Source: a virus. Taken from it: DNA of 64,000 nucleotides. The position numbers and the translations under genes were made by a program. Position 1 is the first letter of the stretch. Each line of letters begins with the position of its first letter. The stretch is taken from IMG/VR virus record IMGVR_UViG_3300047510_001751, positions 126,249 through 190,248 of that record. One strand, given 5' to 3'. Shown piece after piece: positions 4,771-64,000 of this stretch. Below the pieces are notes generated by a model that searched no databases, was not told where the DNA came from, and saw only the letters and a list, made by a program, of their open reading frames with translations.

Positions 4771-4829
4771 TTTACCCCGACATTATACTAGTATCTCGTA
4801 GTATTATTTAGAAGGGTAAAATGTATAAA

Positions 4830-6659: not shown

Positions 6660-6708
6660 TGAAGAATCTCTCTATTGAAATTATTTGTCTGATTTATTTA
6701 TATTTATA

Positions 6709-9700
6709 TCAAACCGAGTAAGGAATGACATCATTTCCTGAATCTATAACATTAGATCCAGATATTACTGTACAACCAGTAAAGGATGTTGAAGTTTTTC
6801 CTGTATAGGAAATAACAGTGTATTGAGTAGAAGAACCTTGGAATAATCGGCCATTTGTCGGGAACTTAGAAGTATTGCCAACTACAGTTAAAATATTTGT
6901 TACTGAAAGATCAGTTGAAACAGATAATACAACTGGATTTTGAATTGTTGGTATTGCTAAATTAAAACGATCTCCAGATAAAGTAATTGCTGAATTTTCT
7001 CTTTCTATAAAATCATTTATAGTAACTAATGGATACATCATTGAAAGTTCTTCAATTGTATTGGCAGTAGATAGCAAACCAGTGTCAACAAATCTATTTC
7101 CTTCGTATGTTCCAAAATTAAATCCAGCATTTATTGAATAATATGAAGTATAAAATTCATCAATTATAATAGCTTTATTTTGTACTTCTACTATTCCGCT
7201 GTTTCTGGTCAATACTTCATTTATAGGATCTTCTAAAATTACTTCTCCTGTTCTTGTAAGAATAACATTATCTAATATAATTGATTCCAAATAATAATCT
7301 AAAGTTCCTGTTTTATAGAACCTAGTTACATCAGCATTTTTAGCTAACTTAGAAGATAATAGATTTGATAATGTGTATACAGTTAATGGAACGTCTAATT
7401 CAGTTGTAATTGTATTAGACGATTGAATATATGTATTATCAGCATATAAATTATGATTTAATTTTATTTCCCTAGAAATAGGATCAGATAAAATAGTAGT
7501 TAATGTAGATACTACAGATAAAGCATTTGCTGCTAATATAGTAATATTAGTTGATTCCACTAAATTAGTGTTATCTAAACCAATATTAACAAAGTTTGTA
7601 ATTAATCTATCGCTAGTTACTAAAGAAGTGCTAAGTACACTAGATACAGAGCTAAAGGTATAATCAACTTCTGTTGTAATTGTGGAAGAAGTAATTATAT
7701 CTAATTCTAAGTTAATCGATTGTACTGTTGTAATTTCTTTGTCTGTCTCACCAGACATTTGAACATTAACAGCATTCGATACATTTAATACTCCTGCTTC
7801 AGCAAGTGTAGAAACATAACTTTGAGTCGAGTAAATATTTGTGACAATATTATATGATGTTGGGGGAATTATAATTATTTCCTTAATAACATCAATTTCT
7901 TTTACATTAGGTATTTCAAAGTTATGTTGAGTATTAATTTCTCTCGAAACATCCTCTACTACATTTACTTCAGCAATTAATGAAATTGATTGTATTAATA
8001 CAGTAGGTTGTGGAATGACCGTAGAAGTAACTTCGGTAGTAAATATAGTTGTAGGTCCAACAGGAACTATAGAAATTAGTTCTGGTAAATGTCTCAAATA
8101 ATCACCAGCTTGGTGAGTTATTGCTGTTGTTCCAGCAGCTCCTCTCTCCACTCCAAGAAAACGATCAGAAAGCTTTTTAGCATATCTAACAATTTCCTTG
8201 CCGATAAGAAGCCTACTAGCATCAGGGAATCTTCTGGTATCAGGAATATAAACAATAGTATCTGTTAAAGATAATGGGGCGTCTAAGAAAGCACCAATAT
8301 CATTTGTAGCATCGGAAGGAATTTCAATAATAGCATTATTTAAAATTTTATTAATGTTTAAAGTAATTTCTTTATCAATAGAAGATATTGTGGAAGAAGA
8401 AACAATATCTGCTGGAATATCAATAATAGAAGTAATTTCTCTTGATACTGTATATTGAAGAGCCTCAGCAATCAAAGTTTTCGAATCAATTAAAATTTCT
8501 GTATCAAATTTTTTCTGAGCAGTTGCCAAAATTTTTGGCTTTGGTGTTATAATTTGAGTAACAAATCTTTGTAATTCTTGATTATCTACTAACCCACTGA
8601 GAGTAATAAGAGAAAAGACTCCGATTGCTGCTGGACCATCACCAGAAATAGTTATAGTAGAAATTGTACTATACTCAGTTGTAATAGTTACACTAGAAGA
8701 AATGTTTAGTACAGTTGATGAATCAATTTTTCTACCAAATTGTTTAATTCTATTATATCCTCTAGCTACAACAACCTTGGGCGGTTGAGTATACCCAGAA
8801 CCCCCATCAATTAATACAATATCAAGTATTTGGCCCCCGTAAGCTATTACCTCGGCCTTAGCTCCTCCGCCATTTCCGTCAACTGGAATAAAGTAAACTT
8901 TTGGTGTTGTGTAATATTGATACGCTGTTGGTTGTAATAAAACACCCTTCTCAAAATAAAGTTGTAAATCTCTCTTATTATATTCAATATCTGAAACATT
9001 CAAGGAACTAATTGAGCCATCTTCAAAATCTACATTAGCAGTAATACTTAATCCTTCGCCCCTTGTAATGCCTTCATAATTTGTAGACCTTACTTTAGTA
9101 TAAATCTGATTTGAAATATATTCTGACGGATTGTAATTTCGTGTGTTAACAAAATTAGGCAAAGATACTATTTCACGGTAATCAAATTCTCCATCAATTT
9201 GAATTTTATCTCCAGGATATAAATTAGCATTTAATACATTTTTTTCCAACCAAGCATCATCGCCTAATTTAGTATCAAACAACCAAGCTGGAATATTTCT
9301 TTTTAATATTCTAGTTCCTTCAGAATCAACTTCGTAACTATACTCAATAGAATCTACATTGTTTAATGGATACTCTTTATATTGTGTAGTTACTTGGGGA
9401 ACAAAAACTGGATCACTTGACAATACATTAATTTCTCCATAATAAGGACCAAAAACATCGACATAATAATATTTTTGTATATTTGTGGATGCCGATAATT
9501 CCCAAGTAATAATATTGTTAAAAGATCCATTATTTTGAACAGGATCGACCTCATAGTTTTGGTTGTAATATGTTCCTGTGTAATCAGTAACAAAAATTCT
9601 TCCAAAAACAGAAGGATTTGAATCTAATTGATAATAATATAAAGATGTAGTATCGTTTGGAACAATCCAAGAAATTGTTCCTGTAGATTCTCCATTATTG

Positions 9701-12700
9701 GTAATATTTTCTGTTACAGCGATTTTATTTCCAAATCCATCGTCTTTAACAATAGATACAGAACTTGGAGAAGTGATATTTAAATCTAATGTATTATAGG
9801 CAGCAATAAAAATAATTGGATTTGGATCTGTAGGTCTTCCTACATCAATAAATGAAGTTCCATTATATGAAATATTATATGGGGTAGTCTCAATATTTTG
9901 TGGTTCTAACCTATCTAAAATATAGAAAGGTCTTCCATCAGAATTTACATTAAATGATACTGTGTTTCCTTGTCTAAGTGTTATTGTAGAAGAAGCCAAA
10001 TTTTGTGTTGGATTTGCTGGATTGGTGACAACCCAATCATTTACATCGACAGGAAAAGCAACATCATAATTATAACTAGCTGTATCTAATTGTTCAACTA
10101 AAATAACAGATTCTGTAAATTCTTCGGTGTTTATAATTTTTAAATCAGGATCCGACAAATCTATAGTATCAGATAAATTATGATTTATCAAATATACAAT
10201 AATTTCGTCATTTGATATTTTATTATATCCTCGTATATAACCTAATGTATTTTCTCCTTCATTTAAAATAATTTTATCGGTAGATAAAAATGTATATAAA
10301 TCACTAAACGTCTGATAAACGTTATTGCCAACAATCGTTAGATTAATTGAATTATAGTAAGTATCTGGCTCAAAATCATAGAACGTTAATGTTTTTGGAA
10401 GATCTCTTCCATAAGCCAATATAATAGAAACTTGTTGATAAATTATTTCGCCAGATTCAGAAATATATTTTTGAAGAGGATTTGTGAATGTAATATTAGG
10501 TCCTACAATTTGATAGGCATCTCCCTCTCTTTGTAAAACACCATCAATAATAACAAAAGCATATAGTGGCTCATCAATTTTCTTTACTCGATTTTCTATT
10601 TCATCTAAAATTAAGTATGGACCACCACCTCTAAATTCAATCAGTTTATTTTCAATCGTAAATCTTTCGTAATTGCCAATTGTGTAAATAAAACACTTTT
10701 CATTTCCTTTTAGTTCAGAGGGAACATCGTTAACATATGGATCTTCTTGATCTATAGGAGCGGAAGAAAAAACAATCTTATCTGTTACATTAAGATCTTC
10801 TGATCTTAAAATATAATATGAATTGCCAAACTGAGTGTCTGCCGAAGACTTAGCATTTTGAATAACACCATTAAGAGTTACAATTAAATTTTCATTTTGT
10901 TCGGTTTTGACGATATTATTATCTTCATAATATAAATCAAATTCTTTCTTGATACCATCAAATTGATTAGCTATTGATTTAATTTTTTTAAAATAGCGAG
11001 AATTTAAAGAACTATTTTTGAATTTAATTGCTCTTCCGTAAAATCTTTGAGCAGCAACTTCCTGCCCCTCAACAACTCTAGTTCCAAATGGAGGTTGAGA
11101 AAATTCAATATTAGTACCAGAAATAGTATATGATTTTCCTGGCTCTTGTAAGACCCCATCCAGAGTTACAATCAATTGCTGAGAATTGTTTAAAAATAAT
11201 GGTAAACCATTTTTAGCATCAATTAATGTAAATTGTGTAGTTCCCACAACTTTGCCAGTATTGGGATCAAAATCTCCGTTAAATTCTGGAGATAATGTTA
11301 CTTCGTAAGCTAATGTTTCAGATGAATCAAAAGTATCTACTGAAACAGCACCCAATCCTCTTTCTACAAGTAAAGACTCGTATTTTATGTAAGAAGTAGT
11401 AATATATTTTTTAGTTTCGATTACTGTAATATTAATTGGACCAAGACTGATAGAACTATACGTTTCTATAGTTTTTTGTTCGGATGGCATCGTTATTGAG
11501 CTATCCGTTTCAATTAATACTTCACCAAATAATTGGAAACCAGCTGGGTGAGTAGTTTCTTTAATTAAATCTTTCCATATTTGAATTGGAGTTTTAGATT
11601 TAATTACATAAGAATAATCTTGATAAAAATAAGAATCTAATAATTTTTGTGAGTTAGCTCCAATTTTTCCTTTATCAGAAGAATAAAATCCTAGATTATC
11701 GTAATACGATCTGATATCAGAATTAAATTCTGTAGAAATTTGAGCAACTAATGTAGCAGTTCTATTATTATCTTTTCCTACAATAGTATAATTATCTTCA
11801 AATATACCCTCAATGTTCTCTACTTTTAGGAGATTGCTACCTGCTCTCCAACCATTTTTTGATACTTTTGCTTTTGCTCCTGTAAATGGTTGAACAATAA
11901 ATTCTCCAGGGTAAAAATCATAATCATTAAAATCTTTTAATAGAAATGTTGTAGTTGATTTATATAATGGCGTGGTTGTTTTATCAGCATTAAAATAATA
12001 TCCATTATTTACAATTGTGATATTTTGAGGTACGCCAATGTTGTCAGATTCTAAAAAGACATTCAAATCAGATTCAACTATTTTTACTGAAGGTTTTTGA
12101 TCAAATTTGCCTCCATTTAAAACAATAATTGAAGTTATTTTGCCACCTTCTTGAATACATTTAAAGTTGTATTCAGAAGATGAATTAGTAATAATTGCTT
12201 TTGGTTTTGAATAATTTATTCCAGGTTCAATAATATTAAAACCAACAACAGTATTGTTTAAGGTATCGTAAATGGGATCTACGATACACTCGTATACAGA
12301 GGAAGGAAGAATACCATCAATAGTTGGTATTCTTTTATAATTTTGTCCAGTGTTGGTAATTTTTATGCTATTGATTTTTCCAATAGCAAAAGGAGATGTG
12401 GTTGTATATGTAATTTGTCCTGAACCATCATATTCTGGTGTAGATGATAGAGTATAAACAATTTTATTATTAGTTACATAACTTACTGATTTTTCTCCAA
12501 TTAAAGGATCATCTACAATTTTTAAAAATGAATTATTGGTATTAACGTCGGGAGATACTTTGATGAAATAAAAATAATTACTAAAATTAATTCTTTTTCT
12601 TTCTGTAAAACTATTATTAGATATATTTGGACCAAATCCTAATTTTATAGTTACAAAAGACCCAGGATTTCCTGGGGAAATAGTACTTACAAATTTTTCT

Positions 12701-21753: not shown

Positions 21754-22032
21754 TCAATCTTCAGGAAATTCGATAATCTGAAGATCGCCAATCTTCCGTG
21801 CTTTCGCTATCACCGAACCGAGGGAGAATCCCAGGAGATCGGGTGATTTAATGATCTCGGCAAGGTGTACAGCAAAGCGGGATGTAGCGTCGAAAGCGTA
21901 TGCTTTCTCTGTGTTGCTGTGGAAGATGATTTCGACGCAATTCTCGTCGATCTCGATGTTGTAAATTGCCGAGGATTCGTCAATAGTGAAAGTCCGAAAA
22001 ATCGGGGCTTTTGAGATAACGAAGGAAGGCAT
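21754..22032 (-). CDS. KTSC-like small protein
   Basis: ESSAIYNIEID...EIIFHSN...YAF...SLGSVI pattern resembles KTSC; paralogous to 26330..26566. Confidence 0.5.
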   Translation of the reverse strand: MPSFVISKAPIFRTFTIDESSAIYNIEIDENCVEIIFHSNTEKAYAFDATSRFAVHLAEIIKSPDLLGFSLGSVIAKARKIGDLQIIEFPED

Positions 22033-22101
22033 GGTTTCTGTAAAGAATTGGGGTTGGGGTGGGGGGCTGGAGTGCCCCCCGTTGCTCGCTATCCTAGCAC
22101 A

Positions 22102-22398
22102 TCACAGGCGGCTGTTCCGATCCTGTGCCCACATGGCGAGGCGCTTGGTGCTCGCCTTGCTGAACACCCGATCGGTCTGGGTGATGCTGCCGTCGTCGTG
22201 GCTGACACGGTGGCGGTTGGCAGCCTTGGCACACTGCTGGAGGGCACGGCGTCCCTGGGCGTTGGTCTGGGCGAGGTTCAGCAGCAGGGTGGCACGGTGA
22301 GCGCCGATCACCTGGGGGCGGTTGATCAGGATCTGAGCGACTCGCTCGGCGTCACCCATGAAGGCGGCGAAGCGGGAGGAGGGGATGATCTTGAGCAT
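22102..22398 (-). CDS. Early hypothetical protein (basic)
   Basis: MLKIIPSSRFAAF... start downstream of a TATAAT -10 at 22444-22449. Confidence 0.65.
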   Translation of the reverse strand: MLKIIPSSRFAAFMGDAERVAQILINRPQVIGAHRATLLLNLAQTNAQGRRALQQCAKAANRHRVSHDDGSITQTDRVFSKASTKRLAMWAQDRNSRL

Positions 22399-22500
22399 GG
22401 ATCTCGGTGGTAGTGGGGGGCGGTGGTGCCCCCCGATGTCGTAATTATAGCGGATCGGGGGTGGCTGTCGAGGGTCGGCAGCCAGTTCCCGAAGTGGCAC

Positions 22501-22686
22501 TCAGTGGCGGTCGGAGATGTTCCAGGTGCCCCAGCCTCCATGCTGGCGCTCGTGCTCCAGCTGGCGGGTGTCGATCGCTTCGAGGCGCTGGGCGCTGCTG
22601 TACTTTGCCCAGCCTTCGGCGGTCTCGCTAGCGAGGCAGCTGCCGTAGCAGGCGTTCCAGATCAGGTTCGCTTCGTCGATGGTCAT
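22501..22686 (-). CDS. Early hypothetical protein, 61 aa
   Basis: MTIDEANLIWNACYG...; ATG follows the repeated leader CAAGTCAACCACCGACACCGACCG. Confidence 0.65.
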   Translation of the reverse strand: MTIDEANLIWNACYGSCLASETAEGWAKYSSAQRLEAIDTRQLEHERQHGGWGTWNISDRH

Positions 22687-22726
22687 CGGTCGGTGTCGGT
22701 GGTTGACTTGATCAGTATAGTGCCCC

Positions 22727-22903
22727 TCAGGGCATCTGGCAGCTGCCAGGTGTGACAGAATTGTAGGTGGCACAGCGGGCAGCGGTTGCTTGGTTGACCG
22801 CTGCCACGGTGTCAGCAGCGAACCCGATGGCAGCACCGCCCACGGTGGCGATGGGAGCGTAGAAAGCAGCACCGAGGGCGAGGAGGGCGATGGTCTTGAT
22901 CAT
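22727..22903 (-). CDS. Early hydrophobic/signal-peptide-like protein, 58 aa (not in track)
   Basis: MIKTIALLALGAAFYAPIATVGGAAIGFAADTVAAVNQATAARCATYNSVTPGSCQMP, behind a repeated promoter-leader. Confidence 0.6.
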   Translation of the reverse strand: MIKTIALLALGAAFYAPIATVGGAAIGFAADTVAAVNQATAARCATYNSVTPGSCQMP

Positions 22904-22966
22904 GGGGTGTCGGTGGTTGACTTGATCAGTATAGCATGGAAAGGGGGCAGATGCCCCCCTGGTGGT

Positions 22967-23242
22967 TCAGAACATCTCCCCGATCGGCATGATGTCGGGG
23001 GTGGGATCGTAACCGTCGAAAATCGCCTTTACGATGTCATCGTAGGATCGCTGGCTGAGAATACCCTCCACAGCGATCTCCTCTGCCCATTCATAGAATC
23101 CACCCGAGAGAAAATCACAGGGGAACAGATACGGATGGGTTTGATCCATCAAGTCTTCGATCTTACCCAGCTCGGTGTTCAGATCGGTGGGGATCTCCCA
23201 AGCTTCGTCGATCTGAACGGTGTCGGTGAAGGCGTAGGTCAT
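22967..23242 (-). CDS. Early acidic hypothetical protein
   Basis: 91-aa ORF behind a repeated promoter-leader. Confidence 0.7.
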   Translation of the reverse strand: MTYAFTDTVQIDEAWEIPTDLNTELGKIEDLMDQTHPYLFPCDFLSGGFYEWAEEIAVEGILSQRSYDDIVKAIFDGYDPTPDIMPIGEMF

Positions 23243-23317
23243 CGGTCGGTGTCGGTGGTTGACTTGTTCAGTATAGGGGCAGGAGAGGGGGGCTGTGTGC
23301 CCCCCGTGTGTAGGTTG

Positions 23318-24046
23318 TCAGGCTGGCACAGCTGCCCGAACCTTGACCTTCTGGACCTTACGATTCGCCCTCGATGCCTTGCCCCACTCGCTGCCAGCGG
23401 GTTGGGTGCCGTGAACCAGCAGAGCGAAGGGACCATCCTCAAAGCAGGAGCGATCCTTTACATCAACCTTGAAACCTGCTGCCATAGCGTCATCCTCAGT
23501 CATGAACACTTTAGCATAACGAGGGAACACACCTTCGTCGATGAGATAATCAAACTTGCCACCATAGCTGGCGGTGAAGTAGAAATTATCTGGCAGGTTG
23601 AGTCCTACAAACAGGGGCAGATTCTTGCTGTAGCAGTAGAACTTGATCGAAGGATTAGCGTGAGCAACCAACAACCAAGCGAGCAAATACTCAGCAGAGA
23701 AGAAGTCACCACTCTCGTGAATCCTCACTTTAGTGATAGATTTAGTGAGATTCTGGCGGAGTTCGGTGTTGATGAGACCAGCACAGTTACCCTCCTTGAG
23801 AGCTTCACGGATCGCCTGAAGGTTACGCTGGCGGGATTCATAAACTTTCGTGTACTGTACTTCACTGCTAGCAGCAAAACAGCGAAACTCAGTTTGAGGA
23901 CCATCCCAGATCTTGCGTTTGCCGTTAGAATCAATCCGAACCATAGAGAGGCACTGATTAGCACCTGGGCAGGTTGTGCCTGCTGGCAGGTTGAAAATCA
24001 GGGTGTGCTTGTCGAGCTTGTCGTTGCCTTTAGAGAAGCTGAGCAT
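23318..24046 (-). CDS. GP88-family protein
   Basis: FNLPAG-x-TCPGA, CFA, RIHESGDFF, FYCYSK motifs typical of phage gene product 88. Confidence 0.75.
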   Translation of the reverse strand: MLSFSKGNDKLDKHTLIFNLPAGTTCPGANQCLSMVRIDSNGKRKIWDGPQTEFRCFAASSEVQYTKVYESRQRNLQAIREALKEGNCAGLINTELRQNLTKSITKVRIHESGDFFSAEYLLAWLLVAHANPSIKFYCYSKNLPLFVGLNLPDNFYFTASYGGKFDYLIDEGVFPRYAKVFMTEDDAMAAGFKVDVKDRSCFEDGPFALLVHGTQPAGSEWGKASRANRKVQKVKVRAAVPA

Positions 24047-53474: not shown

Positions 53475-53848
53475 ACTGGGAGCGGTATCCTGTCAGAAAA
53501 TGATCGTAAATTATCATTTGAGTAAGCCAAATTGCCATTAGAAAATACTACAACTTGAACAAAATAATCTGGATCACCATCTCTGTTCATGGGAAAGTTT
53601 TCCACAGCAAAATCATAAGCAGTTTGCTCATCAGGAAATTCTACAAAGGTAAATTCGTTATAAAGAAATTTATCAAAAAGTTCTGGTGATTCTGGCTGAA
53701 AATTTTGATAATACATTGAATAAATTTGATTTGCTTTTTCAGCATCATCTACATTATCTGGTCCGATGGTTCTAAGAATCATCATGGTCTTTTGTTGTGA
53801 TTCTGTATAATATTCAATCCATCCCAAAAAATCTCTAACTACCATCAT
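53459..53848 (-). CDS. Hypothetical protein (tail-fibre associated operon)
   Basis: 129 aa, ATGA-coupled to the upstream gene. Confidence 0.65.
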   Translation of the reverse strand: MMVVRDFLGWIEYYTESQQKTMMILRTIGPDNVDDAEKANQIYSMYYQNFQPESPELFDKFLYNEFTFVEFPDEQTAYDFAVENFPMNRDGDPDYFVQVVVFSNGNLAYSNDNLRSFSDRIPLPVEPPA

Positions 53849-54786
53849 TCTGCCTCCTGTATTTTAACTTTTTTAAACTCTTCCATATCTTTAATTAAAT
53901 TATACTTTGTAACGAGGTTGGACATTGTTGGACTGAGTTTAAATCCTTGTTCTTCATATTCATGTACCAAATCACCAAATTTAATGTATTGATTCATAAG
54001 TTCTTGAGACTTTTTAGGATCCAAGAAATCAGGATTAGAAACAAACTGATCGTCTGTTTCCAAATACTTCACTTCAAATTCAGGATATTTTCCATAGTAT
54101 TGATCTGGTCTAATCGGCCATTTCATTTCTTCCAGCCAAATAAGATAATCTAGAGAATCTTCAAAGTCTGATGGCAATTTGTTTAGTTCACGAATTTTAG
54201 ATCTCCACAATACCCACATTTTACGCTCATTTTCAAATACTTCTGGAGCATCTGGCAAAATTCTCCAGTCAGTGTCTCTTAATAGTTTTTCGATAAAATC
54301 AATATTTTCTTTATTAAATTGTGTTAGATAATATGATTTCTTTGATAGTTCAAGATAGTCTTTTAAATTACTATAATTTTTAACTTCAGTATCAACAACA
54401 ATTGCTGTATTTAAAACATTATATAATTCTTTTGCTTGTTCTACAGTTAAAAAATCTGAAGTATATTGAATCCATTTTGTACTTTTAGTGGGAAAATCAT
54501 ACTTCATTTTTTCCTTTTCAAGAATATATTCGCCACTTTCGTAAATAGCAAATAATATAATTCTATCGTTATCATTAGACCATTCGTTGGGAATGTTTGC
54601 TAAAATATTTTGATTGATAGCATCACTAATTACTACAGTATTATATACATACTGACCATCATCATCTTTTGTTCTCAAAAGAATCAATCGATTTTTAGCA
54701 TCATACTCTAAGATTGTTTTTTTCTCGTCTGGAGAAGGCAATCTTTCAAACACAAAGTCGTCAGGATTAAATTTTAATTTTCCCAT
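53845..54786 (-). CDS. Tail fibre assembly chaperone-like protein
   Basis: LLRDTDWRILPDAP...W..WRSKIRELNKLP, phage tail assembly chaperone motif; directly after the fibre gene. Confidence 0.65.
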   Translation of the reverse strand: MGKLKFNPDDFVFERLPSPDEKKTILEYDAKNRLILLRTKDDDGQYVYNTVVISDAINQNILANIPNEWSNDNDRIILFAIYESGEYILEKEKMKYDFPTKSTKWIQYTSDFLTVEQAKELYNVLNTAIVVDTEVKNYSNLKDYLELSKKSYYLTQFNKENIDFIEKLLRDTDWRILPDAPEVFENERKMWVLWRSKIRELNKLPSDFEDSLDYLIWLEEMKWPIRPDQYYGKYPEFEVKYLETDDQFVSNPDFLDPKKSQELMNQYIKFGDLVHEYEEQGFKLSPTMSNLVTKYNLIKDMEEFKKVKIQEAE

Positions 54787-54811: not shown

Positions 54812-57800
54812 TTAATATGCCTTGATCATCCACCTTACTTTTGTATATGGCGTCACCAAAGGAACTAAATCATTTGGAGCAAATGCTGGGGTAGGAATCA
54901 ACTGCTTACCAAATCCTAAAGTAAAGGTTCCAGGGAATACTTCAAGACCAACCTGACCAGCTGTAAATGTAACAGCTACAGAAGAATCTGAAGGAGCGCC
55001 ACCAAACGATGTTCCACCGCCTGAGCTATTGCCATAAGAAAATACACCATTGATATTAGTAATAGCAGAAAGAGATAGATAGTGTGAGTGAGATAATTTT
55101 TCAACTGGACTAAATTTACTAACACTCACAAATCTTCTTGGAATTGTTACAGATCCGATCCATCTCAAATTATTTCCAGATGTGGTATCTGCTGGTAGAG
55201 CATTTTGATCTACATAATTATAAATTTCAGAAAATTGTGCTGAGTTAGGTTGTTGAATAGTGATACTGTTCCATATTTCAGCCTCTTTAGGACTACCACA
55301 ACTTACAGTAAAGACAAAGTTAAACAAACACTCAACTGTGCTGCTTGAAGGACCAGGATCTGTATTTGGATTTAAGAAATTTCCTCTATAAGTGCTTTCA
55401 GCACAATTTCCATACTCTCCAATTTCTCTACCCCAAACAGTTCCATACGTAGCAATTGGATTTGTTGTTCTAATAGTATTCGCTGAATCATCACTATTAG
55501 ATGGGTCTCCAATTAATTGATACGATGATCCAGTATGGTATCCCCACAAATTAAGTGAGGCTGATCCTTCTAATGGAGGAAAAGCATCAGTTCCAGATTT
55601 TTGCCCAATATTAACTGCTCCTGGAGCACCACCTTGGCTTCCCCAAGAAACACGACCTTTGAAACTACCAGCATCTGCTTGTCCAGCTACAAGATCATGT
55701 GTGTGGAATGGAGCACTAAACAGTTTTGTTTCTTTTAAAGAAACATTTCCTGATACTTGTCCGCTGGTTAAAAATTCAACGGTATCACTAACTTCGCTAT
55801 ATCCAGTGGTTGTAATTTGAGCGATAGCAAAGAATTGGCTATCTTGTGCTGGCTGACCTGTTGCTGGGGTTTCTACTTGCTCAAGTTCATCAACACCAGG
55901 ATCAGCAATAGTATCAATATACCACATACCACCAAATGATCCAGGAACAAAAGCAGAACCATTACCTTTTTGTTTAGCTGGTCCATACTCAGGGGTAACA
56001 ATAGGAGAAGCAGGAGATTGATTATCTACGTTTCCAACACCCAAAAGTTTCCTGTTTCTCATATCAGGAACTCTAAATTCTCCACTAAGGTTAGCTCCAA
56101 AAGTATTTCCAATTACATCATACAACAATGGATAATCATTTGGAGAAACAAATCTACCATCACAATAAATCCAACTTGGAAATCTAGAATTTGCTTTACC
56201 ATTTAACTTGTCGTCAGAAATACCCCACCCGTCTTCTTGAGTATTATCTCTAAAGACAGGCATGATAGAGCCAACGGGCATACCATCAAATTTGGTATTA
56301 AACTTAATTTGATCACTTCCTAATACCTTGATAACAAAAGGACTACTGTAGTATTGTCCAAAAATTGGCTCTGGTGCTGGTCCTGGTGTAGTTACAGCAA
56401 AAGAAGTATTATATGATCCAACATATACATTTGTTGATAATGTAAAAGCATCAATCTCACTAGATTTTAATCTGACTTGAACTGTATTTCCATTAGCTAC
56501 AGTACCAGGATTTGTTGCTGTTAATAATTGGAAACTTCCTCCGTTAATACTAATCAAACCACCACCAGTAGAAAAAATACTAACAGATTGTCCCAATCCA
56601 CTAATAGTAATAACTTCCGAATCCGTAAATACACCTGGACCAGTGGCTAAAATAGGAGTAAACAAGAATGGAACTGGAGAAGTACCAAGCTGACCTTTGT
56701 TTGTAACAGTCCAAGTAGTGCTATAAGTTCCTACCGTCACCACAAATTGTTTTGCTTCGCCAGTAAGACTACTAGTAGTATATTGTAATTGAATACTATC
56801 TAAATTATTTACTGTAAATGTTGTTGTGTTACCAACTGGTGCTATTGGATTAGCCGTATCAGCATTGATAATTACCGAAGCTCCCCCCGTTACTGTAGCA
56901 GTAATAGGTGTATCAATACCCTGAATAGTTCTGGTGTTACTAGAAACTAAAGTATTTAATTCTTGATTTGATAAATCAGTAAAAATAAATCCAATTGGCG
57001 TAGTATCTTTTTGTTTTTCTGTTCTAACTTCCCATTCCACTGCTGATCCAGTGCCAACGATAACATCAGTAAACAATGATGTCAAATAATCTGGCGACGA
57101 TAATAATCTGACTCTAAATCCCTGTCCATTAGAAATTTGTCGAGGAGAATTTTGATAAGTATCACAAACTCCTCCAGTACAAATAGCAATTTGAGCAGAA
57201 TTTGAAGCAGTTATACTTACAGCAGTGTTAATTCCAGATATTGTTACAATATCACTTTCAACTAAAGTATTAATTAATTGATCTATTTTATCAGGAATAA
57301 TGAAAGGAGCAGGTGTATTGTCTGGTGGTTCCCCAGTATTAACATTAAAGAATGACGTTACATTACCAATAGTTACGTTTGCTCTATAGGTAGTAAAGAA
57401 ATCATTGCCAGTTGTGAACCTTACTTGTACGTAACCTTCATTGAAAATTGTAGCAGATTGCCCCCATGCTCCACAAGTGTTTGGATCATCTGGATTACAT
57501 GTTCTTACTTGAGCATTATTTCCAGACAATGTGGATACAACTCCACCAGTAATACCAAAAATTTGAACTTTTTCTGAAGTGTATTGAGTAGCAGGTAAAG
57601 CATTATCTACTTCAGGGAAAAAGAATGGTTCTGGTGTAATATCTTGTGGAGCATAATTCAACATTACATAACCAAATTCTTGTGGTCCAGCGCCAAAGCT
57701 TAAGTTGGTAGTTTCAGTAATAATCGTGTATGCTGAATTATAATAAGCACCGCCAGTAGTGCCACCTAGAGCATCAAGGTCTGTAGTTTGAATTACATTA

Positions 57801-60286
57801 CCAGATTCATCTACTTTATTTGCTGGGATTGTGCCTCCAGCACCCCAACCGCCACCGCCACCACCGCCGCCGCCACCAACGGTAGCGTTATCTTGACCAT
57901 CAGAACCAGCAAAGTTTAATCCACTTAAATTAGTTCTTAATGTTGCCTGACCAGTGTAATTTCCATTTTGTGTTGATGTAGGAACTGTAGTGTCATTACC
58001 AGCACCAGCGCCACCGCCGCCACCGCCAGCGAGAACTAGCAAAGTTCCATCTCCTAAAGTAATGGCAGAAGCGCCGCCACCGCCGCCGCCACCTCCAGAT
58101 CTATCCGAAGGTCCAGCATTCCCGCCATCTCCACCGATAGCATATCCCCAACCACCGTCTCCTCCAGCAGCACCATTTAAAAAGCTAACACCAAATCGAC
58201 CAGCATCTCCTGGGAATAATTTCAATTTTCTCAAATTTTCATCATTCAAAACTTCTTGAGGAAGATTAATGACTCCTTTCAAAATGGTACTAAATCCACC
58301 TTGGCCACCAAAACTGCTCGGAGCATCATCACCACCATTTCCTCCACCCCCGCCGTATAATACAAAAGTCAATTGTTCTACATAAGATGGAAGATTATAC
58401 TCAATAAATTCTGTAGCACCAGAACCAGTAGTGGTAAAATAGATATTTTCTTCAATTTTTGTTAAAATTTTCCAAGTATCTGTATAAGTTCCTATTCTAT
58501 AAACAGCATTAACTAAACCTGCTTGAGCAGCAGATGCTGTAGCTCTTACATAAACTACTTCAGCAGTTGCTGGGACTGTTACCGATTTAGCAAATGTTAT
58601 ATTATCGACACTAACTTGTACGTTTGCCCCTGCTGTTGATTGAGCGTCTACAGCTTGTGCTGTTGTTGAAACATCAAGACCTTCAATAGGAACAGCAACA
58701 ACATAAGTTTGTCCAGGTAAAGCGGTGTAATTATCTCTTGCTCTAAATGGATATGGAGTGCTCCTAGAAAGTCTAGTTTTAATTGTAATTGTATCTGTTT
58801 TGTCAGCAAAAGTTGGTGTAGTTGGACCAGCAGTTGGATTTCCATTTGGACCACCAGAAGGAGGACCAGCTAATCTAATAGAACTTGTTTTTGTAGTATT
58901 AAAATTAGGAGAAGATGTGATTCGTAAATTTACTTGATCTCCGTTTTGAACATATAATTGCTGTACCCAATTTCCTGTATTATTTTTTCTAATCTCAGCA
59001 TCTCCACTAGTTACACTACAAAGAACTTGTACTGTTTGATTTGATGTATTAGTGGTTAAAATGGGTAAAATACCAGAAATATAAGAAGGGTTAATTGGTG
59101 CCGCTGCTTCTGAGTAAGTACCACTTCCATATTCTGTTCCTAATCCAGATATACTAAAATTGGCATAATAAACTCTAGATGGATCAGCATTATTGAATGT
59201 GTTTGTAGAACTAACAGTTACATTATCTGGTATTCCTGTTAATAGCTGAATATTGTCGTCAGATGGAGTAAAAATAGGAGATAAAGAAACAGTGTTTGGA
59301 TATCTATCCACTTCTGTCCAAACATACCAACTGTCTGTCCTAGTGCCAATAGATTGAACAACCTGGAAAGTTCCAGATCCATAAGTTCCAGCATCATTAT
59401 TTTCAAATCCACCAGCAAGAGTATCTTGGTCGTTTGAAAAAATAGTTACCGATCCCGAAGTTTTAGTTGTATATGTAGAACCAATAGCAATTCTTGTATA
59501 TAATGTGTTGTTTAAAACAAGCCCAGTGACAGATTGAGACCAAGTTGAATTATCTTTGGAAATTTGTACATTGCCTGTAGATGTAGCTCTCAAAACAGCA
59601 TCGGTATCGATACCAGTGATAGGTATATTTTGTGTTTTGTATCCGCTAAATTCGGTAGCAATAACATCGACAAAATCAGTAAACTGCCAAGAATTTACAA
59701 GTTGATCCTGTGCTCTAGTATTGATTGTCCATGTATCTGAAACAACAGAACTTGGACGACCTACATTAGTTCCCCAAGTTTCATCTGATAAAGTAAGAGT
59801 TACATTAGTTCTGGTAGTATACCAATTTTCTGTGGTAAGTCTAAGTCTAATTTTATCTCCTTGTCTTACTGTTCCACTAGTAATCCAAGGACCTATAGAA
59901 CCACCACGATCTATTCTAAAAGCAGCGGCGGAATTTGTTCCTGTGGTAGAACCTTTCGGTCCCGTAGTAGAAACAGAAATAGAGGCAGGAATCTCAATTT
60001 CAATACCATTAACTAATATTTCATTAGAATAGTATGTCGTTGATTTTTCAAATGTGGTCGTTAATGTTCCGCCAGTAGAGGTTAAAAATCCTTGTTGATC
60101 ATTAAAAGAAAAAGTATCTGGACGAGAATCTGGAATTCTAGTTCCAAAGATAATGCCATCGGGATCATTGCCAGTACCAATCCTGACATTAACTGTTACT
60201 TTTGTATTCCATGTTGATGGAGTTGGGTATCTTACTTCTACCTGATCTCCTAGTCCAACAAATACTGGCGTACTACTAAATGGCAT
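54812..60286 (-). CDS. Tail fibre protein, 1824 aa: tandem ~100-aa beta-rich repeats, Gly-rich domain, tail collar domain
   Basis: Repeats D-x-TP-x-x-F-x-F...I-x-GI...NG-x-x-V-x-VR...V-x-IG; GGGGG tracts; collar GMPVGSIMP...WIYCDG...YPLLYDVIGNTFG...FRVPDMR. Confidence 0.8.
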   Translation of the reverse strand: MPFSSTPVFVGLGDQVEVRYPTPSTWNTKVTVNVRIGTGNDPDGIIFGTRIPDSRPDTFSFNDQQGFLTSTGGTLTTTFEKSTTYYSNEILVNGIEIEIPASISVSTTGPKGSTTGTNSAAAFRIDRGGSIGPWITSGTVRQGDKIRLRLTTENWYTTRTNVTLTLSDETWGTNVGRPSSVVSDTWTINTRAQDQLVNSWQFTDFVDVIATEFSGYKTQNIPITGIDTDAVLRATSTGNVQISKDNSTWSQSVTGLVLNNTLYTRIAIGSTYTTKTSGSVTIFSNDQDTLAGGFENNDAGTYGSGTFQVVQSIGTRTDSWYVWTEVDRYPNTVSLSPIFTPSDDNIQLLTGIPDNVTVSSTNTFNNADPSRVYYANFSISGLGTEYGSGTYSEAAAPINPSYISGILPILTTNTSNQTVQVLCSVTSGDAEIRKNNTGNWVQQLYVQNGDQVNLRITSSPNFNTTKTSSIRLAGPPSGGPNGNPTAGPTTPTFADKTDTITIKTRLSRSTPYPFRARDNYTALPGQTYVVAVPIEGLDVSTTAQAVDAQSTAGANVQVSVDNITFAKSVTVPATAEVVYVRATASAAQAGLVNAVYRIGTYTDTWKILTKIEENIYFTTTGSGATEFIEYNLPSYVEQLTFVLYGGGGGNGGDDAPSSFGGQGGFSTILKGVINLPQEVLNDENLRKLKLFPGDAGRFGVSFLNGAAGGDGGWGYAIGGDGGNAGPSDRSGGGGGGGGASAITLGDGTLLVLAGGGGGGAGAGNDTTVPTSTQNGNYTGQATLRTNLSGLNFAGSDGQDNATVGGGGGGGGGGWGAGGTIPANKVDESGNVIQTTDLDALGGTTGGAYYNSAYTIITETTNLSFGAGPQEFGYVMLNYAPQDITPEPFFFPEVDNALPATQYTSEKVQIFGITGGVVSTLSGNNAQVRTCNPDDPNTCGAWGQSATIFNEGYVQVRFTTGNDFFTTYRANVTIGNVTSFFNVNTGEPPDNTPAPFIIPDKIDQLINTLVESDIVTISGINTAVSITASNSAQIAICTGGVCDTYQNSPRQISNGQGFRVRLLSSPDYLTSLFTDVIVGTGSAVEWEVRTEKQKDTTPIGFIFTDLSNQELNTLVSSNTRTIQGIDTPITATVTGGASVIINADTANPIAPVGNTTTFTVNNLDSIQLQYTTSSLTGEAKQFVVTVGTYSTTWTVTNKGQLGTSPVPFLFTPILATGPGVFTDSEVITISGLGQSVSIFSTGGGLISINGGSFQLLTATNPGTVANGNTVQVRLKSSEIDAFTLSTNVYVGSYNTSFAVTTPGPAPEPIFGQYYSSPFVIKVLGSDQIKFNTKFDGMPVGSIMPVFRDNTQEDGWGISDDKLNGKANSRFPSWIYCDGRFVSPNDYPLLYDVIGNTFGANLSGEFRVPDMRNRKLLGVGNVDNQSPASPIVTPEYGPAKQKGNGSAFVPGSFGGMWYIDTIADPGVDELEQVETPATGQPAQDSQFFAIAQITTTGYSEVSDTVEFLTSGQVSGNVSLKETKLFSAPFHTHDLVAGQADAGSFKGRVSWGSQGGAPGAVNIGQKSGTDAFPPLEGSASLNLWGYHTGSSYQLIGDPSNSDDSANTIRTTNPIATYGTVWGREIGEYGNCAESTYRGNFLNPNTDPGPSSSTVECLFNFVFTVSCGSPKEAEIWNSITIQQPNSAQFSEIYNYVDQNALPADTTSGNNLRWIGSVTIPRRFVSVSKFSPVEKLSHSHYLSLSAITNINGVFSYGNSSGGGTSFGGAPSDSSVAVTFTAGQVGLEVFPGTFTLGFGKQLIPTPAFAPNDLVPLVTPYTKVRWMIKAY

Positions 60287-60314
60287 TTATTTTATGACAA
60301 TTTCCGCTATTTCT

Positions 60315-60322
60315 TATTTATA
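60315..60322 (-). promoter_or_regulatory. Late promoter TATAAATA for the fibre gene
   Basis: Exact consensus 29 nt upstream of the ATG. Confidence 0.8.
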
Positions 60323-60323
60323 T

Positions 60324-60500
60324 TCACTCTAGTGGTCTTACGTCTTGCCAAGGACCACCATTAATTCTAACTTGTATTGGCTGGGTAGCTTTTATTTCTG
60401 CTTTTTCATCTTCCTCGATATGATCAACCGAAACAATTTGTGATTGATAATATTTTTGTTTTGGCGACATATCAGGAGCGTCTAAAAATTTTCTTTTCAT
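60324..60500 (-). CDS. 58-aa mini-protein homologous to the C-terminal module of the upstream paralogs (not in track)
   Basis: MKRKFLDAPDMSPKQKYYQSQIVSVDHIEEDEKAEIKATQPIQVRINGGPWQDVRPLE; own TATAAATA at 60519-26. Confidence 0.7.
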   Translation of the reverse strand: MKRKFLDAPDMSPKQKYYQSQIVSVDHIEEDEKAEIKATQPIQVRINGGPWQDVRPLE

Positions 60501-60521
60501 AACATCAATTTATTTTTGTAT

Positions 60522-61727
60522 TTATATACTCCTAACATCTCTCCAGCTTCCGAAACTAGATGCTCCAGCAGATTTTATTCTTACCTGACAATTACTATTA
60601 TTAGTTTTAATTTCAACAGGAATTTCAATATCATCTACACTTAAAGTATTTGTAGAGATATATTGTTCAGCTGGATTATCTGGAGGAGTTGTAATTGTAT
60701 CAATATCTGGAAATGGAACCCTATCATCTTCATTAGAATAATTGAATGTTTCATTTACATCTGGTGCTCTAGTGGTTAAACTAAAGGATCGTGTTAATGG
60801 TCCTACTGTAGCAGAAAATGTAGATGTGTTAGTCAATCCAGATGGATCTGTGTTAAATGGTGGTGATGTTGCTCTAACCCAAAATTGATTTCCATTAACG
60901 ATAGAAATAGACCCAGAAGACCAACTAGATCCATTTGTAGAAACTTGAACTCCCGCCCCACCAAATGCGGTAATTGGTTGATCAATGCCACTAATTGTTG
61001 TAACAAATATACTCGTTGAAGCATTTGGTTCTAAACCTGTTCTACTTCCAATAGAAAAATCATTTGGAGTTCCGTCATTAAAAACAGAAACAGTAACTGA
61101 TTCTGATACACAATTAGAACCATTACATGCTTGAATAGTATACGTTCTTGTGGCAGGAGAATTAGATCCAGCAGTAGATTGTAATCCTGTATTTTCTGTT
61201 CTTGTGCCGCCTGCTGCCACAGGAGAACCATTAATAGTAACACTAGTAGCACCAGACGAAGACCATGTTAAATTAAATACATTAGTCCCCGTCATTGTTT
61301 GTGGGGAAGCAGAAATATTACCAGATACTGTAATAGTAGTAGTAGTGGTAATATTAGTAATTTTATCTAAGCTAAATGTGGCGTTTGTATCATCGCCATC
61401 ATCATCAATCATGGTGATTGATTTATTATTAACCGCCTTAAAATCATTAAGAAGACCGCTAAAACTAATATCGTAATTTCCTGGCGTAAATACTCTATCT
61501 CTTGTTTGACTACCATTGTCTCCAGGACTATTGAAAGACATGCCATTCAAACCAATGCTACCAATAGCATCTCCAGCTACCCCAGGGTTATCACTCCAAT
61601 CTAATGTAAATTGTATATTGGCGCTGCCAGTTCCAGTTACTTGTACTCTAGCGTTTTTAGATCCTTGTTTGTCAAAATTAGCATTAATATTTGAAGGTGT
61701 ATTAATAGTGAAAGTTTGTGTTGCCAT
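60522..61727 (-). CDS. Fibre-associated paralog C (variable N-terminal domain + conserved repeat + C-terminal module)
   Basis: Shared GLQS-x-x-GSNSPAT-x-TY, ND-x-TP and PDV-x-ETFN...FGSWRDVRSI blocks. Confidence 0.75.
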   Translation of the reverse strand: MATQTFTINTPSNINANFDKQGSKNARVQVTGTGSANIQFTLDWSDNPGVAGDAIGSIGLNGMSFNSPGDNGSQTRDRVFTPGNYDISFSGLLNDFKAVNNKSITMIDDDGDDTNATFSLDKITNITTTTTITVSGNISASPQTMTGTNVFNLTWSSSGATSVTINGSPVAAGGTRTENTGLQSTAGSNSPATRTYTIQACNGSNCVSESVTVSVFNDGTPNDFSIGSRTGLEPNASTSIFVTTISGIDQPITAFGGAGVQVSTNGSSWSSGSISIVNGNQFWVRATSPPFNTDPSGLTNTSTFSATVGPLTRSFSLTTRAPDVNETFNYSNEDDRVPFPDIDTITTPPDNPAEQYISTNTLSVDDIEIPVEIKTNNSNCQVRIKSAGASSFGSWRDVRSI

Positions 61728-61730
61728 TGA

Positions 61731-63035
61731 TTATATGCTCCTTACATCTCTCCAAGCACCAAATGTGGTAGATCCAGAATCTTTAATTCTAACTTGAACA
61801 TTTGGATTGCTAGTTTTAACCTCTACATCAATTTCTACATCATCAACAGTTACAGGATCTGATATTATATATTGATCAGGTGATCCAGGAAGTGTGTCAA
61901 TATCAGGAAAAGGTAATTTATCATCTTTATTAGAAAGATTAAAAGTTTCGCTCACATCAGGTGCTCTAGTAGTCACAGTAAATGATCTTCTAGTTGGTCC
62001 TACATCAACATAATATGAAGTAGAATTAGTCAATCCAGACGGATCTTGATTAAATGATAAAGAAAATACTCTTATGTAAAACTGCTGATTATTTGTTATA
62101 GTAATTGTATTAGAGTATGAACTTCCATTATTTGATACTTGAACTCCTGGTCCTCCTGTAACAGTTGTAATCATATCAATACCTTGTATATTAGGGGAGA
62201 GAATTACAACTGCTGAATTTGGTTCAACATTGTTCTGATTGGGTATTGTAAAATTATTAGGAGTATTATCATTATAAACAGAAACTGTAGTTTGGGAAGT
62301 AGTTGTTCCAGCACTATTTGTTGCTGTTAATGTATAAGTTTTAGTAGCTGGAGAATTAGAACCTTCTACCGATTGAAGACCCGTGCTAATTGTGCCAGTA
62401 GATCCAGAAATTGCTGAAAGGTCCCCAACTCCTTGATTAATATTTAAAGTCTCTGCTCCAAATGTAGACCAAGATAATTGTGTTGTATTGGAGGGTATTC
62501 CCAAACTTCCACTAGTTTGTGGATTTGGGCTGGCAGAAAAACTAAAAATTTCTGGGGGATCAAGTAAAGTAAAAGTTAAATTACACTGATAGAAACAACC
62601 TACGTGAAATAAATTATCTCTAGTGGTAAATGTTAATTGAAAAGAATTATTGCTATTTTTTGCTAAAAAATATGGTCCAGGAACTAAAATAGTTTGTGTT
62701 ACTGGTCTACCTATAGCACATCCCTGCCCCCCTCCTGGAGAAGTCGCCGTGATAATATTAGTTCCATTAAATCTCAATGTCATATTTTCAAAACCAGGAT
62801 CTTGACTTTCACCAAGACCTGTTAAAGAAACACTCATATTAAATCTTGCTTGAGCAGTTAAAGTTGCTAAAGCAGTTCCAGACTGAACATTACCATTAGG
62901 TCCACCGCAATCAGACGAGTTTTGTACATCAAACCTTATAGTGCTGCCATTATTAGAGACATTCCATCCAAATGGCGCACCAACACCAGCTTGTGATAAA
63001 TTCCAACCAACGGTTACTACAGGAGGTAATGGCAT
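61731..63035 (-). CDS. Fibre-associated paralog B
   Basis: Same C-terminal architecture (...FGAWRDVRSI), different N-terminal domain. Confidence 0.75.
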   Translation of the reverse strand: MPLPPVVTVGWNLSQAGVGAPFGWNVSNNGSTIRFDVQNSSDCGGPNGNVQSGTALATLTAQARFNMSVSLTGLGESQDPGFENMTLRFNGTNIITATSPGGGQGCAIGRPVTQTILVPGPYFLAKNSNNSFQLTFTTRDNLFHVGCFYQCNLTFTLLDPPEIFSFSASPNPQTSGSLGIPSNTTQLSWSTFGAETLNINQGVGDLSAISGSTGTISTGLQSVEGSNSPATKTYTLTATNSAGTTTSQTTVSVYNDNTPNNFTIPNQNNVEPNSAVVILSPNIQGIDMITTVTGGPGVQVSNNGSSYSNTITITNNQQFYIRVFSLSFNQDPSGLTNSTSYYVDVGPTRRSFTVTTRAPDVSETFNLSNKDDKLPFPDIDTLPGSPDQYIISDPVTVDDVEIDVEVKTSNPNVQVRIKDSGSTTFGAWRDVRSI

Positions 63036-64000
63036 TTATATACTCCTAACATCTTGCCAGGATCCAAAAGTAGTAGATCCTGCTTGTTTTATTCTAACTT
63101 GAGCATTAGAGTTATTGGTTTTTACTTCAACATCAATTTCGACATCATCTACAGTCAAAGGAGCTGTAGTAATGTATTGATTAGGTGATCCTGGTATGGT
63201 ATCTATATCAGGAAAAGGTACGCTATCGTCATAATTTGAAATATTAAATGTTTCATTTACATCTGGTGCTCTAGTAGTTAAAGTAAAAAATCTCCTTACT
63301 GTACCAATATCAACATAAAATTGAGAAGAATTAGTTAAACCAGATGGATCTTGATTAAATGCTGGCGAAACTGCTCTGACCCAAACATTACCATTAGGAG
63401 ATATCAAAGTAGTGCTAGACCAACTTGAATTATTATTAGATACTTGTACTCCAGGACCACCATTCACAGAAGTAACCATATCTATCCCTTGAATGGTGCC
63501 AACAGAAATGGCAGTTAGTGTATTTGGTTCTAAATTAGTTTGATTGGGAACAGTGTAGCTTGTTGGTGTATTATCATTAGAAACTTGTACTGTTACAGAT
63601 CTAGTTACACAAGTAGATCCAGCACAAGCCGTTAAAGTATACGTTCTAGTTGCTGGTGAGTTAGATCCTACCGTTGATTGTAATCCCGTATTAACAGTAG
63701 TCGATCCATTGCTACTAACAGTTCCAATTCCTTGGTTAATAGTAACTGAAGTAGCGTCAACTGTAGACCAACTAAGTGTTACATTTGTATCTGGAATTCC
63801 GTCATTGCCACTATTTTGTGGATTTGGTGAATATGAAAAATTAGTAATTTCTGGTGTTACTAATTGGTAATCAATTTGAATAAATGGAGTTCCAGAATTT
63901 AAGGAATCTCCACTAATATATTGTAAAACAGACGAGTTATATCCACTAGAGCCTCCGCCGCCTCCGCCGCCACCTCTATTTTGATCAATACCATCAATAC
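63036..64000 (-). CDS. Fibre-associated paralog A (5' end outside the window; track start at 63479 is internal)
   Basis: Frame reads open from the window edge (IDGIDQNRGGGGGGGSSGY...) to ...FGSWQDVRSI. Confidence 0.75.
   Translation of the reverse strand, partial: IDGIDQNRGGGGGGGGSSGYNSSVLQYISGDSLNSGTPFIQIDYQLVTPEITNFSYSPNPQNSGNDGIPDTNVTLSWSTVDATSVTINQGIGTVSSNGSTTVNTGLQSTVGSNSPATRTYTLTACAGSTCVTRSVTVQVSNDNTPTSYTVPNQTNLEPNTLTAISVGTIQGIDMVTSVNGGPGVQVSNNNSSWSSTTLISPNGNVWVRAVSPAFNQDPSGLTNSSQFYVDIGTVRRFFTLTTRAPDVNETFNISNYDDSVPFPDIDTIPGSPNQYITTAPLTVDDVEIDVEVKTNNSNAQVRIKQAGSTTFGSWQDVRSI

Follow-up and report, generated by a model that had tools for sequence, protein, structure and literature searches.

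How can several proteins of one gene cluster end in half of a repeat domain while the neighboring tail fibre begins with the other half, and what would such a split achieve? This question is raised by a 64,000-nucleotide stretch of viral DNA (the window), the final 64 kb of the 190,248-bp IMG/VR virus record IMGVR_UViG_3300047510_001751. The nearest named relatives of the record are T4-like cyanophages of Synechococcus and Prochlorococcus, and a megablast search of the region against phages returned no match. The genes in question sit at the 5′ end of a minus-strand late-gene cluster that runs from paralogues C, B and A through an open reading frame (ORF) of 58 amino acids (aa) to the fibre gene and a chaperone gene (all features below are on the minus strand and are given in window positions). 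Our paralogue names run outward from the fibre, so that A is the C, and C the A, of an initial annotation that was made by a model from the sequence alone. That annotation had described the ORFs of the fibre, the small protein and the paralogues, all of which are present as described, and had suggested that any one of the paralogue ends folds together with the start of the fibre.

We mapped the split with a hidden Markov model (HMM) of the repeat, 111 positions long and built from 11 whole repeats (eight from the fibre and one from each paralogue), with no termini included. In the 190-kb genome, this model recovers the eight fibre repeats and the three whole paralogue repeats and nothing else. 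The C-terminal ends of A, B and C fell on model positions 7/10 to 55/56 and the 58-aa protein on positions 18 to 56, and fibre residues 2 to 41 fell on positions 53 to 101. An hhalign comparison placed the C-terminal half on repeat columns 10 to 64 of 116 (P = 1e-5) and the fibre start on columns 57 to 115 of 116 (P = 2e-7), and in a shuffle control only 0 to 4 of 2,000 shuffles per piece equalled the real score. Both methods therefore bear out the arrangement first annotated, in which each paralogue carries one full repeat and then a first half, and the fibre starts with the half that is missing.

In the 1,824-aa fibre (54812 to 60286), the second half-repeat takes up residues 1 to 52 and comprises strands D to G (60131 to 60286). 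Its counterpart in the 401-aa paralogue A (60522 to 61727) is formed by residues 323 to 401, which cover model positions 10 to 55 and end in ..SWRDVRSI-stop (60525 to 60761); they follow a PA14-like N-terminal domain, an immunoglobulin (Ig)-like domain and a whole repeat (residues 217 to 322). Paralogue B (434 aa; 61731 to 63035) has the same C-terminal architecture, with the half-repeat in residues 360 to 434 (61734 to 61958). The half-repeat of paralogue C (63036 to 63998) lies at 63039 to 63263. The 58-aa protein (60324 to 60500) consists of a first half-repeat only, from strand B to strand C′ plus the tryptophan loop, and is also recognized by an HMM of the C-terminal half (E = 2e-5). Two database families touch these ends: the C-terminus of phrog_2155 is matched at positions 1149 to 1192 of 1193 by B and at positions 1167 to 1191 by the 58-aa protein, and a match of the latter to Pfam PF06820, "prophage tail fibre C-terminus," reached 17 bits, below the cut-off of 25, and is treated here as unproven.

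Joined in silico, for scoring only, with the C-terminal half cut after the tryptophan and the other half taken from fibre residue 4, the two pieces aligned as one domain over positions 7 to 100 and scored 29 to 36 bits, compared with 16 to 57 bits for genuine repeats left out of the model. Controls in which the order was reversed, either half was doubled or the second half was shuffled scored 8 to 15 bits over half of the model. The genome contains one second half and four first halves. This count would suit a different pairing, in which the first halves associate mutually as two four-stranded half-sandwiches that build a pseudo-symmetric sandwich, giving paralogue hetero-oligomers to which the fibre start is unrelated; with several first halves in a genome, the stand-alone 58-aa half could cap an odd one. 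We consider this improbable, as doubling the first half does not raise its score (9 to 10 bits, over half of the model), some loci have a single half-ended protein, and the second half in the fibre, conserved to an equal degree, would be left partnerless.

Structure predictions agree with the division of a single domain. In an AlphaFold2 model of A based on a 57-sequence alignment, the whole repeat (residues 217 to 322) had a predicted local distance difference test score (pLDDT) of ∼95, whereas the half-repeat (residues 323 to 401) scored 38 to 77 with almost no secondary structure. Likewise, in a model of fibre residues 1 to 193 (43-sequence alignment), the first whole repeat, R1, scored 82 to 94, and residues 1 to 52 scored 57 to 73 and formed a partial hairpin only. 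In both models, the whole repeats beside the halves (pLDDT of 82 to 97 overall) act as a built-in control for the depth of the alignment. Unlike these repeats, neither half is predicted to adopt a fold of its own as a monomer, in line with the docking idea of the initial annotation. The strand order of the modelled repeat suggests that the break lies between strands C′ and D; each sheet of a standard Ig-type sandwich would then receive two strands from each of the pieces. Searching solved structures by sequence, with the A-family profile or the fibre as the query, gave nothing meaningful, and Foldseek matched the model of A to no more than generic Ig or FN3 domain strings; CFA/I pilin fusions ranked among its top hits, but likewise only as generic Ig strings.

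If the split matters, it should recur in related phages, and it does so at a fixed point. All 57 homologues of the C-terminal part of A stop at the same place, with W-x-D-V-R-S-I or a close variant, and all 26 fibre homologues start with MPFS.. or a close variant, each at its own methionine. In 53 viral contigs, the second half always lies at residue 1 to 5 of the fibre, and one to five half-ended genes (290 to 2,067 aa) are found upstream of it; a count over 52 metagenomic loci and 18 representative clusters gave the same placement without exception. Most of these contigs, as well as the cultured phage Sf-FR1, have an ORF of 55 to 65 aa in the place of the 58-aa gene. The same split is also present in S-CAM1, Sf-FP1 and S-PM2, which, like Sf-FR1, are only distantly alike in sequence; in S-PM2, the first half closes p223, p224 and p225, and the second opens p226. 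A second-half fibre start is present in 49 phage records, which include all 16 in which a first half could be detected. The two sides of the junction moreover shift together by clade, MA(K/R)xLVG occurring with W..PN.., MPFSS.PV with W.DVRSI and MPFLP..S.GVIV with W.D.R.IGTPP. As a separate observation, a further conserved ORF, of 69 to 102 aa, follows the last half-ended gene and precedes the ∼58-aa gene in most of the related contigs (L012 to L061 in our set); the window and its closest relatives (L005 to L007 and L036) lack it.

A protein in which paralogue and fibre are fused was found neither among 26 word-indexed hits of up to 2,000 aa nor in the 53 loci, nor among 1.84 billion representative proteins scanned with the fibre start. 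The matches in that scan were N-terminal, besides three weak internal ones (E = 3e-6 to 6e-4) that are probably ordinary internal repeats. Could the split nevertheless be only apparent, with recoding (read-through, frameshift, bypass or protein splicing) joining a paralogue to the fibre, or with gene ends that are conserved as DNA-level signals, such as a ribosome-binding site, a late promoter or a recombination linker? The last codons of the paralogues, AGG AGT ATA TAA, do hold an AGGAG site, and those of A overlap a late promoter, TATAAATA, as well. However, stops occur in the intergenic stretches, the frame of the fibre differs from that of the 58-aa gene, every fibre homologue has its own start methionine, and the junction lacks the Cys, Ser or Thr needed by an intein. 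Synonymous sites in the half-repeat, furthermore, are near saturation, and the protein is conserved over ∼75 residues and not just in the last codons. We regard this explanation as exceedingly improbable.

What, then, is being conserved? No region of A, B and C is under tighter constraint than the half-repeat (64 to 76% identity among the three), for which the ratio of nonsynonymous to synonymous substitution rates (dN/dS) is 0.09 to 0.24. Since it is conserved despite synonymous sites close to saturation (dS of ∼1), selection acts on the protein, and the same values led us to reject gene conversion or a DNA-level constraint as the source of the conserved ends. The first 52 residues are likewise the most conserved segment of the fibre, with a mean pairwise identity of 0.70 to 0.80 versus 0.46 to 0.62 elsewhere. 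The locus has complementary halves that are each the most conserved part of their proteins, with one second half in the genome. All that the docking idea of the initial annotation predicts for the sequences is borne out in this way, so that its interpretation has partial support.

We propose that the first half of the cassette proteins (A, B, C and their homologues) and the second half of the fibre form one domain by true fold complementation, a reading that draws on sequence comparison and structure prediction and to which we give an even chance of being correct. A tail-fibre gene would have been split in the middle of an Ig-like repeat, between strands C′ and D, and its upstream piece multiplied into a variable gene array. 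Each product of the array would present its own N-terminal domain, be it PA14-like, a SUEL lectin or glycine rich, on a shared C-terminal stalk made up of an Ig-like domain, one whole repeat and the first half-repeat. The first half-repeat of A, B, C or the 58-aa protein would then co-fold with the second half in the fibre into one beta-sandwich, a noncovalent C-to-N joint, and the fission would have been retained because the halves still build the domain together. What we infer is the binding of the halves, its stoichiometry and the part played by the small protein: if the fibre is trimeric, as its gp12-like end suggests, there would be three sockets per fibre, a virion could carry mixed modules on the baseplate side of the fibre, and the 58-aa protein may act as a plug without cargo. 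More tentatively, and with somewhat less than an even chance, this might hold across T4-like cyanophages, where an Ig-like domain divided between genes and rebuilt at assembly would offer a universal socket for one to five lectin-like cassettes or a 58-aa blank plug, yielding a mixed, evolvable host-binding set without DNA rearrangement.

Several points weigh against complementation. The initial annotation implied a clean cut at the midpoint of the repeat, which is not what we find: ∼7 residues, comprising the Trp/Phe loop and the beginning of strand D, are present in both halves, so that one of the two copies would have to give way or be accommodated as a further strand at the edge. A mirror-tree comparison over 28 loci, with the chaperone as a proxy for phylogeny, gave a partial r of 0.21 for the two halves versus 0.19 for a control pair consisting of the second half and the neighboring whole repeat. 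The co-variation of the junctions by clade amounts to only three or four independent events. Partner numbers show no simple match: one fibre start faces the small protein and, in addition, one to five half-ended proteins, and a protein of the 58-aa type is missing from S-CAM1 and S-PM2. Halves that fold only in a homo-oligomer would likewise give a low pLDDT in monomer models. Finally, the polarity of the cassettes, with a variable N-terminus and a docking C-terminus, is the reverse of that in most phage receptor-binding proteins.

Some of these points bear on the main rival explanation, in which an old fission within the domain left the two halves as relics that now work separately. The fibre start would attach to the baseplate or another protein, the paralogue half would attach or oligomerise elsewhere (for example, as a trimerising tail), and the likeness to the repeat would reflect ancestry only. 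A mirror-tree signal no stronger than that of the control pair, pieces that overlap and so do not represent an exact cut, and up to six first halves per second half are all compatible with such relics. Some paralogues carry an unrelated tail of 40 to 57 aa after the first half, which can therefore occur in another context, and binding to any conserved virion partner would explain the strong conservation equally well. Even so, a half sandwich with an exposed core is unlikely to be stable alone, and AlphaFold2 folds neither half. That complementary halves are recognizable across S-PM2, S-CAM1, Sf-FR1 and the clade of the window would be hard to explain if they never met, and the genome has no other candidate partner bearing a complementary half. 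We therefore hold the relic explanation to be rather unlikely, while giving it real weight.

Where on the virion would complementation place the cassettes? The fibre consists of the half-repeat, four whole repeats (R1 to R4), a glycine-rich region, four more whole repeats (R5 to R8) and a gp12-like collar part at the C-terminus. The eight Ig-like repeats are ∼105 aa long; R1 to R4 span residues 53 to 613 (58448 to 60130; hmmsearch domains 53 to 193, 193 to 326, 327 to 505 and 508 to 612), and R5 to R8 span residues 881 to 1304 (56375 to 57646; domains 881 to 986, 989 to 1092, 1094 to 1199 and 1202 to 1303). The glycine-rich block that breaks the array (residues 614 to 880; 57647 to 58447) matches phrog_30655. 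Some fibre homologues have the Pfam domain Gly_rich_2, a domain type that is also found at the N-termini of several cassette proteins. Residues 1371 to 1412 contain the collar domain PF07484 (E = 6e-12; 45.8 bits versus a cut-off of 24), and residues 1303 to 1824 match phrog_4924, "short tail fiber" (E = 4e-115). Directly downstream lies the gene for a 313-aa tail-fibre assembly chaperone (53845 to 54786; phrog_4697, E = 5e-42), whose position next to the fibre gene is kept in all related loci. With its collar domain, family C-terminus, adjacent chaperone and second-half N-terminus, the fibre shows the traits of the cyanophage phrog_4924/S-PM2 p226 family. The gp12-like collar C-terminus, together with the adjoining chaperone gene, points to the C-terminus as the distal, receptor-side end. 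Modules docked at the N-terminus would therefore sit at the baseplate-proximal end, and the description of the cassettes as tail-fibre tips in the initial annotation is probably wrong.

The N-terminal parts of the cassette proteins are as variable as their ends are fixed. Among the 57 homologues of A, the N-terminal domains vary and include Gly_rich_2 in nine proteins and a SUEL lectin domain in three; that of A itself resembles regions annotated as PA14 domain-containing in other cyanophages. Lectin-type domains in these variable parts, as recognized from sequence, fit with interchangeable adhesin modules. The glycine-rich region reported upstream in paralogue C is present. The N-terminal domains of A and B had been called unrelated, which stands insofar as they share at most a faint likeness but is qualified by a match at E = 0.03. 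In one subfamily, usually first in the array, the first half-repeat is followed by a conserved tail of 40 to 57 aa that ends in ..(I/F)NTR(N/S)SG.L.. (examples are contig positions L023:2401-4095, L020:2305-3618 and L015:3597-4985 and gene 22 of Sf-FR1, L004:4791-6179), and such tails had no detectable match to the second half of the repeat. The label "virion structural protein" on half-ended proteins is the record annotation in S-PM2, S-PM2d (d222) and S-CAM1, and in these genomes such labels derive from the proteomes of S-SM1, S-PM2 and Syn9 (PMC3037559).

Clusters with the same split point can be traced through the Kyanoviridae (p223 to p225 and p226 in S-PM2, SXBG_00068-70 and SXBG_00067 in S-CAM1, and genes 24 to 28 in Sf-FR1), where they keep the same gene order of collar proteins, half-ended proteins, second-half fibre and chaperone. 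The fibres of S-PM2 and S-CAM1 are shorter than that of the window (1,037 to 1,085 aa versus 1,824 aa), and neither phage has the 58-aa gene. In the records of the cultured phages, these proteins go by no names other than "virion structural protein" and "short tail fiber." The cluster is conserved over a range that extends from S-PM2 to uncultured phages of the ocean and varies in copy number and in lectin-type domains. The orthologue of the S-PM2 fibre, S-PM2d224, showed parallel mutation during chemostat co-evolution with its host, Synechococcus (PMC9910659).

Does any known system join its subunits in this way? The proposed joint resembles donor-strand complementation in that an incomplete Ig-like fold would be completed by the N-terminus of another chain. 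In chaperone-usher pili (Fim, Pap and CFA/I), an incomplete Ig-like subunit is completed by the N-terminus of the next subunit, which makes a very stable noncovalent joint. Pili contribute one strand from a short extension, whereas the break here, at profile position ∼55 of 111, would leave about half of the strands, some four, to each chain. The proteins of the window have no sequence homology to chaperone-usher pili, and their setting is a phage virion; among six proteins scanned, including the downstream neighbor of the fibre, there was no Pfam or PHROG match to a periplasmic chaperone or usher.

Head-to-tail joints are also familiar from the long tail fibre of T4, where gp34, gp35, gp36 and gp37 are products of tandem late genes with a chaperone gene nearby and join noncovalently. 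To our knowledge, these joints have not been described as a domain split between two chains, and none of five proteins from the locus had a Pfam or PHROG match indicating homology to gp34, gp35, gp36 or gp37. Branched receptor-binding assemblies, such as CBA120 tailspikes 1 to 4, G7C gp63.1/gp66 and the K1-5 and SP6 adaptors, place several binders on one scaffold and thereby widen or tune host recognition; they dock via folded N-terminal adaptor domains, unlike the putative docking module here, which is C-terminal and half of a domain. A search of the literature on tail fibres and strand complementation found no paper describing the split. By analogy, the proposed joint could be seen as a variant of both the known head-to-tail fibre joints and donor-strand complementation.

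If complementation is correct, it would offer a concrete model for how abundant cyanophages assemble and diversify their adsorption apparatus and a natural case of domain-fragment complementation serving as a modular connector. Cyanomyoviruses have no recognizable g34 to g37, which structural proteins of other, unknown kinds are thought to replace (PMC2984593). Given these missing homologues, which proteins build the tail fibres of cyanomyoviruses and how they are joined are questions on which the present finding bears (PMC2984593).

The gene borders of the cluster also carry expression signals. One T4-type late-promoter-like box, TATAAATA, precedes the 58-aa gene and overlaps the stop codon of A (60519 to 60526), and a second lies between the 58-aa gene and the fibre gene (60315 to 60322). 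Both fit the late promoter consensus of S-PM2, NATAAATA (PMC2984593). The last codons of the paralogues, AGG AGT/AGC ATA TAA, supply the AGGAG ribosome-binding site of the next gene (63030 to 63045, 61725 to 61745 and 60519 to 60530); the ATG of B directly follows the stop codon of C, and the stop codon of A lies inside the TATAAATA box. As these gene-end signals overlap the last codons, part of the R-S-I ending may be doubly constrained.

The tail-fibre cluster crosses the ends of the linear record (63998 to 64000 of the window and record positions 1 to 11000), by which the 5′ end of paralogue C is cut. At the start of the record, the same strand encodes two collar-domain proteins (stop-to-stop frames of 540 and 298 aa) and a protein of >1,696 aa. 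Because the record ends do not overlap, some sequence is missing, including the start of paralogue C; completing this gene by joining the contig ends was rejected, as there is no end overlap and the frame closes after four residues. Elsewhere in the window, positions 22001 to 24000 have a G+C content of 57.5%, against ∼35% for the genome.

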